Part shown: in pieces, positions 52,398 through 62,984 of the stretch
Position numbering within the stretch: the stretch's first letter is position 1
Layout of the letters: each line of letters begins with the position of its first letter
Assembly (NCBI RefSeq): GCF_051961875.1
Contig: NZ_JBQCCV010000125.1
Location: forward strand, 36,915 to 100,914
Source of the DNA: Intrasporangium sp.
GTDB lineage: Bacteria; Actinomycetota; Actinomycetes; Actinomycetales; Dermatophilaceae
DNA: 64,000 bases
Direction: 5' to 3'
Position numbers and translations under genes: made by a program
The notes under the pieces: generated by a model
Seen by the model: the letters and a program-made list of their open reading frames with translations, nothing else
What the model was told of the DNA's origin: nothing
The model's database searches: none

Positions 52398-53714
52398 ATG
52401 ACAGACCTGTTCACGACGATCATCACCTCGCCCGTCGCCAAGATGGCCGGAGTGCCGCAGCCCACGCGCCTGCGCCGGTACGAGCCCGGTGGACCCCTCT
52501 GTGACGGCCCCGTTCTCGTGGCCGGAAGCGGCCCGTATGTCGCTGAGCTCCGTCAGTGGGTCGGTGCCGCCGGCATTGCGCTGGCCGAGGCGAACGACGC
52601 CGCGACCGACAAGATCGGTGCCATAGTCGTCGACCTCAGCGACGCGACCGACCCCGGTCAGCTCGAGCTGCTGAGGACGCTCGGGCCTGCGGTCAAGCGG
52701 CTGCGGACGAACGGCCGCGTCGTGGTGGTGGGAACCGACCCGACGACGCTGACCGACCCGGCCCACGTAGCGACCCAACGTGCGCTGGAGGGCTTTGTCC
52801 GCTCCCTCGGCAAGGAGCTGCGCGCCGGAGCCACGGCCAACCACGTGCTCGCACGCGGCACGGCCAGCGACGGGCTGCGTTCCGCGGTCGAGTTCTTCCT
52901 ATCCGGCCGCTCCGCCTACGTCGACGGCCAGGTCGTCCGCATCGACGAGACCAGGGGCAGCAACCCGACCGGCGAGCAGCCCCTCGCGGGCAAGGTCGCC
53001 GTCGTCACGGGCGCCGCACGCGGCATCGGTGCGGAGATCGCCAAGGTCCTGGCGCGCGACGGGGCGACGGTCGTGGCGGTCGATGTGCCCGCCGCGGGCG
53101 AGGCCCTCGCCGCCGTCGCCAACCAGGTCCGCGGCACGACGCTCCCGCTCGACGTCACCTCGCCCGAGGCCGGTGCGACGATCGTGGAGCACGCCCGGTC
53201 CAGGCACGGCGGCCTCGACATCGTCGTGCACAACGCCGGGATCACTCGCGACAAGCTGTTCGTCAACATGGACGAGTCGAGGTGGCAGAGCGTCATGGAC
53301 GTCAACCTGCGCTCCATCCTCCGGATGAACGAGGCGATCCTCGGGGAGGGCGGCCTCGGCGACGGCGGCCGAGTGGTGTGCCTGTCCTCGATGGCCGGCA
53401 TCGCGGGCAACCGTGGACAGAGCAACTACGCGGCGAGCAAGGCCGGCGTCATCGGCCTCGTGACCGCCACCGCGGCGGCGGTCGCCGACCGGGCGATCAC
53501 GGTCAACGGGGTCGCTCCCGGCTTCATCGAGACCGAGATGACGGCACGGATCCCATTTGCCACGAGGGAGATCGGCCGCCGGATGAACTCGCTTCAGCAG
53601 GGCGGCCAGCCCCGGGACGTCGCGGAGACGATCGCCTGGCTCGTCCAGCCAGGAGCGGCGGCGGTCAACGGCCAGGTGATCCGCGTCTGCGGCCAGAGCA
53701 TGCTCGGAGCGTGA
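52398..53714 (+). CDS. fabG4: 3-oxoacyl-ACP/CoA reductase (FabG4-type, extended N-terminus)
   Basis: N-terminal domain with SAYVDGQ, then TGAARGIG, HNAGITRDK, NYAASKAG, RVCGQS.LGA. Confidence 0.88.
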   Translation: MTDLFTTIITSPVAKMAGVPQPTRLRRYEPGGPLCDGPVLVAGSGPYVAELRQWVGAAGIALAEANDAATDKIGAIVVDLSDATDPGQLELLRTLGPAVKRLRTNGRVVVVGTDPTTLTDPAHVATQRALEGFVRSLGKELRAGATANHVLARGTASDGLRSAVEFFLSGRSAYVDGQVVRIDETRGSNPTGEQPLAGKVAVVTGAARGIGAEIAKVLARDGATVVAVDVPAAGEALAAVANQVRGTTLPLDVTSPEAGATIVEHARSRHGGLDIVVHNAGITRDKLFVNMDESRWQSVMDVNLRSILRMNEAILGEGGLGDGGRVVCLSSMAGIAGNRGQSNYAASKAGVIGLVTATAAAVADRAITVNGVAPGFIETEMTARIPFATREIGRRMNSLQQGGQPRDVAETIAWLVQPGAAAVNGQVIRVCGQSMLGA

Positions 53715-55975: not shown

Positions 55976-57970
55976 GTGTCTGCAGAGATCACCGTCACCG
56001 TCGCCGGAAGCGAGCGATCGGTGGCGGAGCAGACGACGGCGGCCGAGCTGTTCAAGCAGATCGGACGTGACGACCGCGACATCGTCGTGGCGCGCGTCAA
56101 CGGGGCGCTGCGCGACCTCTTCCACGTCTTGGGCGAGGGCGACGTCGTCGAGCCGGTCACGGTCGACAGCGAGGACGGCCTCGCCGTCCTGCGGCACTCC
56201 ACCGCCCACGTCCTCGCCCAGGCGGTCCAGCAGGTCAACCCGGACGCCAAGCTCGGCATCGGCCCTCCGATCCGCGATGGCTTCTACTACGACTTCGACG
56301 TCGACGAGCCGTTCCAGCCCGAGGACCTCAAGGCCCTCGAGAAGGCCATGCAGAAGATCGTCAACGAGGGGCAGACCTTCCAACGGCGTGTCGTCACCGA
56401 TGACGAGGCCCTGCGTGAGCTCGCCGACGAGCCGTACAAATGCGAGCTCGTGGGCCTCAAGGGCGGCGCCGGCGATGCGGCCGAGGGCGCCAGCGTGGAG
56501 GTCGGGGCCGGTGAGCTGACCATCTACGACAACATCCGCCGCGACGGCACCCGCGCGTGGGGCGACCTGTGCCGTGGGCCGCACATCCCGAGCACCAAGC
56601 TCATCGGCAACGCCTTCAAGCTGATGCGATCCGGAGGCGCCTACTGGCGTGGGTCGGAGAAGAACCCCCAGCTGCAGCGCATCTACGGCACCGCCTGGCC
56701 CACCAAGGACGAGCTCAAGGCCTACCTCGACCGGCTCGCGGAGGCCGAGCGGCGCGACCACCGCAAGCTTGGCGCGGAGCTCGACCTCTACTCCTTCCCC
56801 GACGAGCTCGGGTCGGGCCTGGCCGTCTTCCACCCCAAGGGCGGGGTCATCAAGCGCGAGATGGAGGACTACGTCCGCCGGCGGCACATCGAGGAGGGCT
56901 TCCAGTACGTCGGAACCCCGCACATCAGCAAGGACGGCCTGTTCCACACCTCCGGCCACCTGCCGTACTACGCCGAGACGATGTTCCCGCCCATGGAGAT
57001 GGAGGGCGCGGAGTACCGCCTCAAGGCGATGAACTGCCCGATGCACAACCTCATCTACAAGTCGCGCCAGCGCTCCTACCGTGAGCTGCCGCTGCGCTTC
57101 TTCGAGTTCGGCTCGGTCTACCGCTACGAGAAGTCGGGCGTCGTCCATGGCCTGACCCGGGTGCGGGGCATGACGCAGGACGACTCGCACTCCTACGTCA
57201 CCCGTGAGCAGGCGCCGGGGGAGGTCCGCCACCTGCTCGACTTCGTCCTGTCGCTGCTGCGCGACTTCGGCCTCAACGACTTCTACCTCGAGCTGTCCAC
57301 CCGCGACACCGAGGGCGACAAGAAGGACAAGTTCATCGGCTCCGACGAGCAGTGGGAGGACGCCACCAGGATCCTCGAGCAGGTCGCCACCGAGACCGGG
57401 CTCGAGCTCGTGCCGGACCCGGGCGGCGCCGCCTACTACGGTCCCAAGATCTCCGTCCAGGCGCGTGACGCCATCGGGCGGACCTGGCAGATGTCGACGA
57501 TCCAGTACGACTTCAACCAGCCGGAGCGCTTCGGCCTCGAGTACCAGGCCGCGGACGGGTCACGGCAGGAGCCGGTCATGATCCACTCGGCCAAGTTCGG
57601 CTCGATCGAGCGGTTCCTCGGTGTCCTCGTCGAGCACTATGCCGGCGCCTTCCCGGTCTGGCTCTCGCCGGTCCAGGTGCTCGGCCTGCCGGTCGCCGAG
57701 GAGTACGCCGACTACCTGGGCGAGGTGCTCGCGCAGCTGCGCCGCAAGGGCGTGCGGGTCGAGCTCGACGCGAGCGACGACCGCTTCCCGAAGAAGATCC
57801 GCAACGCCTCGAAGTCCTAGGTGCCCTAGGTCCTCATCGCCGGTGAGGTGGACCGGGCCGCGGGTGCCGTCTCGTTCCGGTTCCGGGACGGGTCCCAGAA
57901 GAACGGGGTCCCCGTCGACGACGCGATCGCCGAGATCCTCCAGGCGATCGAGTCCCGCGCCCAGGTGTGA
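55976..57970 (+). CDS. thrS: Threonine--tRNA ligase, interrupted by two in-frame TAG codons (57818-57820, 57827-57829)
   Basis: [55 protein letters not shown]. Conserved anticodon-domain sequence continues after the TAGs to TGA 57968-57970. Confidence 0.93.
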
Positions 57971-58040
57971 ACCGGCCCCCCGGCGACGACTTTCCGCGAA
58001 AACCTTGCGCGGGGACGAGAACGGGGGTTCAATCAGACCT

Positions 58041-58183
58041 ACCGAACCGCTTCGGCGGATCGGATTCCTCAATCGCTGTAGCGAATGAGGAACAGAAGGC
58101 CCGGGAACTCATACTTCCCGGGCCTTCACCTTCCGTCTTGCACCGGCCCTGCGGCTCTCACACCCGCAGGGCCGTCTGCTTTC
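58041..58183 (+). ncRNA. Putative structured small RNA with four consecutive hairpins
   Basis: Stems at 58042-58063 (UUCG loop), 58065-58092, 58095-58127 (13 bp perfect) and 58145-58173 (10 bp perfect). Candidate promoter TTGCGC-N17-TTCAAT at 58005-58033. Confidence 0.55.
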
Positions 58184-58297
58184 TCCGCCGCCCTGCCGCA
58201 GCGCCGGTGCACAGGGCCGGGCCAGATCGCGCAGGAGCGGGCAGGATCGGGTAACGGGAACCTGATCGGGTACGGGCCGGCGACCAGGAGGTGCCGC

Positions 58298-59008
58298 GTG
58301 TACGTCTACCGGGACCGGGTCGATGCCGGCCGCAGGTTGGGGGAGTCGCTCGCGGACCTGTCGCTCCGGGACCCCGTCGTCCTCGGCCTGCCGCGCGGTG
58401 GCGTGCCAGTCGCGGCCCAGGTCGCACGCCGCCTCGGTGCCCCCCTCGACGTCGTCGTCGTGCGCAAGCTCGGCGTGCCGAGCCAGCCGGAGCTGGCCAT
58501 GGGCGCCATCGGTGAGGAAGGGGGGCGGGTCGTCGACGCGCGGATCATGCGGGCGGCCCGGGTCGACGAGCGGCGCCTCGCCGAGGTCGAGGACCAGGAG
58601 CGTGAAGTCCTGCAGGATCGGGTTGCCCGCCTCCGGCGGGGCCGGCCCCGCGCCGAGCTCTCCGGCCGGACGGCGGTCATCGTCGACGACGGCATCGCGA
58701 CCGGCGCGACGGCCCGGGTCGCCTGCCTCGTCGTCCGGGCGCTCGGGGCGCGGCAGGTCGTCGTGGCCGTTCCGGTCGGCCCACCGGACATCGACGACCG
58801 GATGCCCGAGGCCGACGCGGTCGTCTGCCTCGAGAAGCCGTGGGGCTTCCGGGCCGTCGGTGGCGCCTACGACGACTTCGACGCGACCACGGACGATGAG
58901 GTGGAGCGGCTGCTCGAGGCGGCCCATCCCGGCTCAGGCGGTCCCGCTGCCGACCCGGAGAATGGTGAGGCCCTGCGATCTCACACATCGCAGGGCCGGG
59001 ACCATTGA
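58298..59008 (+). CDS. Type I phosphoribosyltransferase-like protein
   Basis: AGGAGG RBS; YRDR.DAG..L, LGLPRGGVPV, RKLG.P, VIVDDGIATG.T. Confidence 0.87.
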   Translation: MYVYRDRVDAGRRLGESLADLSLRDPVVLGLPRGGVPVAAQVARRLGAPLDVVVVRKLGVPSQPELAMGAIGEEGGRVVDARIMRAARVDERRLAEVEDQEREVLQDRVARLRRGRPRAELSGRTAVIVDDGIATGATARVACLVVRALGARQVVVAVPVGPPDIDDRMPEADAVVCLEKPWGFRAVGGAYDDFDATTDDEVERLLEAAHPGSGGPAADPENGEALRSHTSQGRDH

Positions 59009-62436: not shown

Positions 62437-62984
62437 CCGAGACACTCACCTGGGTCTTCGCGGCGCTCTTCGTCCTCGTCATGATCGCCTGGTACCTCAC
62501 CTACACCGCTGCCCGCCTCGACCGGCTCCACGTCCGGCTCACCGGCACGGTCGCGGCCCTCGACGCGCAGCTGGTGCGGCGGGCGGAGGCCTCGGTCGAG
62601 CTCGCCAACAGTGGGCTGGTCGACGGTGCCACGGCCCTCATCCTGGCCGGCGCGGCGGCCCAGTCGCTCGAGACCCCGGACGTGGACGGCGAGATCCGGG
62701 AGGCGGTCGAGAGCGACCTCACCGAGGTCCTGAGCCTCACCCTCACGCCCGAGCTCGTCGACCACCTCCGGCTGTCCGGGCCGCTGGGGGAGGACCACCT
62801 CGACCGGCTCTCCTCGGCCTGTACCCGGGTCCAGCTCGCGCGGCGCTTCCACAACGACGCGGTGACCGATGTCCGAAGGGTCCGGCGCCAGCTCGTCGTC
62901 CGGCTCTTCCACCTCGCCGGTCACACCCCGATGCCGGTCACCGTCGAGTTCAACGACGAGGTCCCACCCGGCCTGGAGCGGTGA
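62433..62984 (+). CDS. LemA-like membrane-anchored hypothetical protein
   Basis: N-terminal TM; RLDRLH.R......[15 protein letters not shown]; usual gene after pimA. Confidence 0.75.

Follow-up and report, generated by a model that had tools for sequence, protein, structure and literature searches.

The two in-frame TAG codons in the threonyl-tRNA synthetase gene (thrS) analysed here, together with a Glu-to-Val change a few codons further on, very probably represent three wrong bases in an uncurated metagenome-assembled genome (MAG), a reading based on a sister population, on relatives and on the essentiality of the gene; the doubt that we attach to it, all alternatives taken together, is small. 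The thrS stops are private to this assembly, and similar private nonsense codons are found in other conserved genes of the same assembly. In the organism itself, thrS is predicted to be an ordinary intact single-copy ThrRS gene reading ...KS-K-VP-Y-VLIAGE-E-D..., and the finding is without biological novelty. The window, i.e., the whole stretch of 64,000 nucleotides that was analysed, corresponds to C125:36915-100914 of a 4.01-Mb assembly (G000; 4,009,478 bases; 70.9% G+C) with 317 contigs, the longest 129 kb and the shortest 2 kb, for which completeness was estimated at 97% and contamination at 1.4%. Since the sequencing runs containing window DNA are soil and rhizosphere metagenomes, and given the 317 contigs, G000 is a draft MAG.

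The interrupted thrS frame and its counterparts in relatives

Around the stops, the frame opened by the GTG at 55976 reads AAC GCC TCG AAG TCC TAG GTG CCC TAG GTC CTC ATC GCC GGT (see Table 1 for coordinates). The initial annotation, made from this sequence, had placed both TAG codons within the anticodon-binding domain, and we confirmed this for codons 615 and 618: a Pfam search with the read-through translation returned the domains in ThrRS order (TGS PF02824, residues 10-59; tRNA_SAD PF07973, 197-237; tRNA-synt_2b PF00587, 344-555; HGTP_anticodon PF03129, 567-655), with the single HGTP_anticodon match crossing both stops. The second TAG is followed by 46 sense codons (57830-57967) and not by 47 as previously counted. 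The gene resembles the canonical bacterial class II ThrRS in its domain order (TGS, editing/SAD, catalytic core, HGTP) and in its identity to actinobacterial relatives (79-96% to the 11 that were aligned), and with the three bases as in the sister population it would be an ordinary ThrRS. Unlike the canonical enzyme, which has an uninterrupted frame through the anticodon-binding domain, the deposited product would end after 614 residues, without the final 50 of that domain. The repeated CCTAGGT had also been pointed out as carrying the rare CTAG; the two CTAG copies lie 9 bases apart, which is out of character for G000 because this tetranucleotide is strongly avoided throughout the assembly (790 copies in 4,009,478 bases versus about 10,600 expected from base composition, approximately 13-fold fewer).

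A full-length thrS without stops was found in 30 of the 30 relatives searched, the two TAG codons being present in G000 only. In the alignment of 11 relatives, the check that had been proposed, codon 615 was K, codon 618 F or Y and codon 625 E or D in every sequence, such that the window thrS breaks an invariant pattern at three positions inside 32 bases. Residues 27-30 (56054-56065) of the window gene form a four-residue insertion, KQIG, relative to four congeners; it seems real, as no indel was reported against the independent contigs described below. Four relatives also have a second, shorter ThrRS-like gene (an open frame of approximately 400-500 amino acids, 35-39% identical to thrS residues ~250-660), which comprises the catalytic and anticodon-binding parts without the N-terminal TGS and editing parts; G000 is without a copy.

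Table 1 Features of the window and of other contigs discussed in the text (positions without a contig are those of the window).
Feature	Location	Strand	Sequence or stop	Remarks
thrS (threonyl-tRNA synthetase)	55976..57970	+	GTG start, TGA stop 57968-57970	664 codons; otherwise intact
In-frame TAG, codon 615	57818..57820	+	TAG	X1-X4: AAG (Lys), 57818 T>A, 100% of depth; relatives K
In-frame TAG, codon 618	57827..57829	+	TAG	X1-X4: TAC (Tyr), 57829 G>C, 100% of depth; relatives F/Y
Codon 625	57848..57850	+	GTG (Val)	X1-X4: GAG (Glu), 57849 T>A, 100% of depth; relatives E/D
Second private-base cluster	56129..56137	+	TTG GGC GAG (L-G-E)	Contigs: CTG GCC GAC (L-A-D)
Second short ThrRS-like gene, G003	C134:2161-3375			
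Second short ThrRS-like gene, G004	C453:68-1258			
Second short ThrRS-like gene, G008	C12:207081-208304			
Second short ThrRS-like gene, G007	C2:322507-323724			
Metallophosphatase	C92:2680		TAA	One domain match crosses stop
SufC	C204:20533		TAA	One domain match crosses stop
Inositol monophosphatase	C177:11028	-	TAG	One domain match crosses stop
M24 peptidase	C215:1122		TGA	One domain match crosses stop
Luciferase-like monooxygenase	C98:5870		TGA	One domain match crosses stop
DAO-family oxidoreductase	C315:1445	-	TAG	One domain match crosses stop
DUF2207 protein	C20:19795	-	TAG	One domain match crosses stop
Acyl-CoA dehydrogenase	C172:3087		TAG	Stop between matched N-terminal and middle domains

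Sister-population contigs at thrS

Logan contigs of four runs (X1-X4), obtained from four samples of one study, were used as independent sequence. These runs share 84-88% of the sampled 31-letter words of the window stretch, and the maximum share of window words in any indexed run was 0.86-0.88 when searched with 1 kb and 10 kb stretches; a search with the 81 bases bearing the TAG codons, for which only 3 words were sampled, returned no run. Between 44001 and 64000, the window differs from the X1-X4 contigs at approximately 95 sites (~0.4-0.5%), with no indels in 20 kb, and the 43 differences that were classified comprise 23 synonymous, 16 nonsynonymous and 2 nonsense changes along with 2 that were not callable. 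The window has A/T in place of contig G/C more often than the reverse (26 versus 5 transitions in X1). Because of this number of differences and the 23 of 43 that are synonymous, X1-X4 represent a sister population, roughly 99.5% identical, and a mismatch to it does not by itself prove an error. We rejected the notion that the whole divergence is error, as the synonymous share is high and several window alleles recur in some of the four runs; most of it is genuine variation between strains, to which a minority of errors is added.

At the thrS sites, the contigs of all four runs covering 57779-58150 carry A, C and A at 57818, 57829 and 57849, respectively, and at all three sites the alternative letter accounts for the full depth in each run (6-8x). 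Contigs with the window letters at these positions were absent from X1-X4 even at min_share 1 and 90% likeness, bearing in mind that Logan contigs lose rare variants. The initial annotation had favoured a consensus or assembly error, had named AAG and TTC/TAC at the stop codons as the sign of an artifact and had suspected that the nearby GAG-GTG-GAC is a substituted EED. All three points are supported: the assembled contigs of the four samples, albeit from a sister population, read AAG and TAC at the two stops and GAG at codon 625, where 11 of 11 relatives have E or D; the GAG brings back the conserved acidic G-E-[ED]-D.

Window-private nonsynonymous alleles strike conserved residues elsewhere in thrS as well, for example at 56129-56137, where 56129 T>C, 56133 G>C and 56137 G>C (window > contigs) were observed in four of the four runs and where four same-genus relatives have LADGD or LAPGD; this is probably another small error clump. 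Outside thrS, X1-X4 all disagree with the window at 52444 (AAG to ATG, Lys to Met) and at 62683 (GAG to GTG, Glu to Val). On the coding strand, each is an A>T change private to the window and of the same kind as those at 57818 and 57849, and both may be further base errors in other window genes.

Nonsense codons elsewhere in the MAG

The whole assembly was scanned for stops with a strong coding signal in the same frame on both sides, which yielded 166 candidate stops (130 TGA, 30 TAG and 6 TAA), mostly ordinary gene ends. Candidates that appeared inside conserved motifs were hand-picked and their read-through translations were run against Pfam, resulting in the last eight genes of Table 1; as this census was strict and partly hand-picked, at least eight genes besides thrS are interrupted and the true number is probably higher. 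A TAG was also seen where the rve domain of an IS3-type transposase begins (C37:5804, minus strand). Three of the nonsense codons beyond thrS were compared with the contigs of X1-X4, and all three are private to the MAG. At the DUF2207 stop the contigs read AAG, at 100% of depth in each of the three runs that cover the site, while at the DAO stop CAG was found in four of four runs as the sole fixed difference in 500 bases. For sufC, the contigs that cover the nine bases including the TAA each show exactly one mismatch, and the sole perfect contig begins one base past the TAA. Variants at sufC and at the luciferase-like monooxygenase gene were hidden at min_share 50 because these stretches are common to many organisms; those at sufC were seen in a narrower repeat of the search. 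All three stop codons are represented among the interruptions, and TAG is the commonest of them, as would be expected with AAG, GAG, CAG, TAC, TCG and TGG being the frequent near-stop codons at this G+C. The assembly also carries a tRNA-SeC (UCA) at C278:11439-11532, and in-frame TGA codons elsewhere in G000 may in some cases truly encode selenocysteine and not be errors.

Nonsense codons in thrS (twice), in sufC and in seven other conserved genes are not credible for a cell, whereas wrong bases scattered over an assembly that has not been curated are. Chen, Anantharaman, Shaiber, Eren & Banfield (2020, Genome Res 30:315; PMC7111523) described local assembly errors in uncurated MAGs through which public databases receive incorrect protein-coding sequences, mostly errors that were detected by missing support in the MAG's own reads. 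G000 resembles those cases in being a draft MAG (317 contigs) with several corrupted coding genes and a consensus that independent assemblies do not support; it differs from them in that the errors were judged from independent contigs and relatives rather than from the MAG's own reads and are pure substitutions, with no indels across 20 kb. The significance is that of a data-quality flag only and has no bearing on the biology of the genetic code. Nine conserved genes of G000, which is a species representative, contain at least ten nonsense codons between them, and gene callers will consequently report truncated ThrRS, SufC and other proteins, which also leads to false alarms in scans for recoding or pseudogenisation; it needs polishing against its own reads.

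Origin of the changes and alternative readings

We infer that the wrong bases arose in sequencing or assembly, for example when the assembler followed a path with little support or a bad read where depth was low. The stretch 57764-57807 is common to many organisms in these metagenomes (summed depth 80-195x versus 6-8x for this organism), the contigs of four out of four independent assemblies break there, and the three wrong thrS bases are located 40-70 bases to its right. Beside this shared stretch the assembly graph would be most tangled, such that a weak path, a single poor read or a single fragment can be taken. Given the second tight cluster, which also lies in thrS, errors in this MAG seem to occur in small groups, and finding two stops within one group is then less improbable than if errors struck independently. 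Were errors independent and rare, three hits in 32 bases with two nonsense changes among them would be improbable, so the errors must cluster.

Several more specific origins were considered. All three thrS changes swap a base for its complement (A>T, C>G, A>T), and loss of the red signal in the older Illumina two-colour chemistry is conjectured to give complement bases; we do not rely on this idea, as it would not account for the DAO error (C>T). A quasi-palindrome or template switch, assessed by eye, was rejected since the changes make two 6-base palindromes (CCTAGG) and improve no longer inverted repeat, while weakening the adjacent GTCCTC...GAGGAC pairing. A chimeric path between species via the conserved stretch was likewise discarded, because a TAG would not come from a functional thrS of another organism.

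Compared to wrong bases in the consensus, it is unlikely that the stops were real in one DNA molecule, or in a rare non-viable variant, that the assembler followed (a damaged or mis-amplified template, or relic DNA). Three changes within 32 bases, roughly the span of one read or fragment, the tight cluster at 56129-56137 and the low depth of the related population (6-12x per sample) are all compatible with such an origin. Its practical consequence would be the same, however, namely a sequence that does not reflect the functional genome.

A further explanation, which we consider very unlikely, is that thrS is a recently inactivated pseudogene whose function is supplied by a second ThrRS gene in the unassembled ~3% of the genome. 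Such a gene has a precedent in the shorter ThrRS-like gene of G003, G004, G007 and G008, and the assembly is indeed incomplete. That paralogue, however, is without the N-terminal TGS and editing part, and the rest of the window thrS does not display any decay (no frameshifts, normal GC3 and 96% identity to a congener). A second thrS, which the initial annotation had offered as backing for a decaying copy, was not found in G000 by tblastn or profile search; the other matches were weak (E ~1e-4 to 1e-5) and lie on C194 and C232, in other regions that resemble class II synthetases. With no second thrS in an assembly that is about 97% complete, real stops would be lethal. Nor would an inactivated thrS explain why sufC and seven further genes carry private nonsense codons.

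TAG is an ordinary stop in G000. It terminates 245 of the 2,445 strongly coding ORFs of at least 200 codons (10%), and RF1 is intact (prfA on C113, 481 bits versus a cut-off of 423, with a 362-aa open frame without stops). ARAGORN detected no CUA-anticodon tRNA among the 51 tRNAs of all 317 contigs, the tRNA-SeC (UCA) being the only recoding tRNA, and PylS was not found in G000 (no TIGR02367 match). These results agree with the earlier view that a global reassignment of TAG is unlikely. That the TAG codons are nevertheless real in the strain, with ThrRS made or replaced by way of the unassembled few percent (an amber suppressor tRNA or a second ThrRS), is hardly probable; if true, an essential synthetase gene would here depend on suppression in a natural setting. 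Natural amber recoding, as in pyrrolysine systems or with amber suppressor tRNAs, has a sole likeness to this locus, i.e., in-frame TAG codons inside a conserved ORF, and differs from it in that G000 has neither a tRNA-CUA nor PylS and possesses RF1 as well as widespread TAG stops.

Read-through of the amber codons into a full-length ThrRS (by a suppressor tRNA, pyrrolysine-type recoding or a context-dependent mechanism), another option of the initial annotation, is exceedingly improbable despite the 46 open codons after the second TAG with their full coding signal and conserved sequence: in addition to the decoding results above, the TAG codons replace two different conserved residues (Lys and Tyr/Phe), which one suppressor could not both restore, the close relatives and the sister population have sense codons at these positions, other interrupted genes also use TAA and TGA, and no Rfam RNA element was found between 55000 and 59000 at E<=0.1.

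Downstream of thrS, the window contains a non-coding stretch of approximately 350 bases (57971-58322) with no Rfam match. A strong, GC-rich hairpin (gaaggcccggg...cccgggccttc, ~58098-58130) closes this stretch and looks like a terminator.
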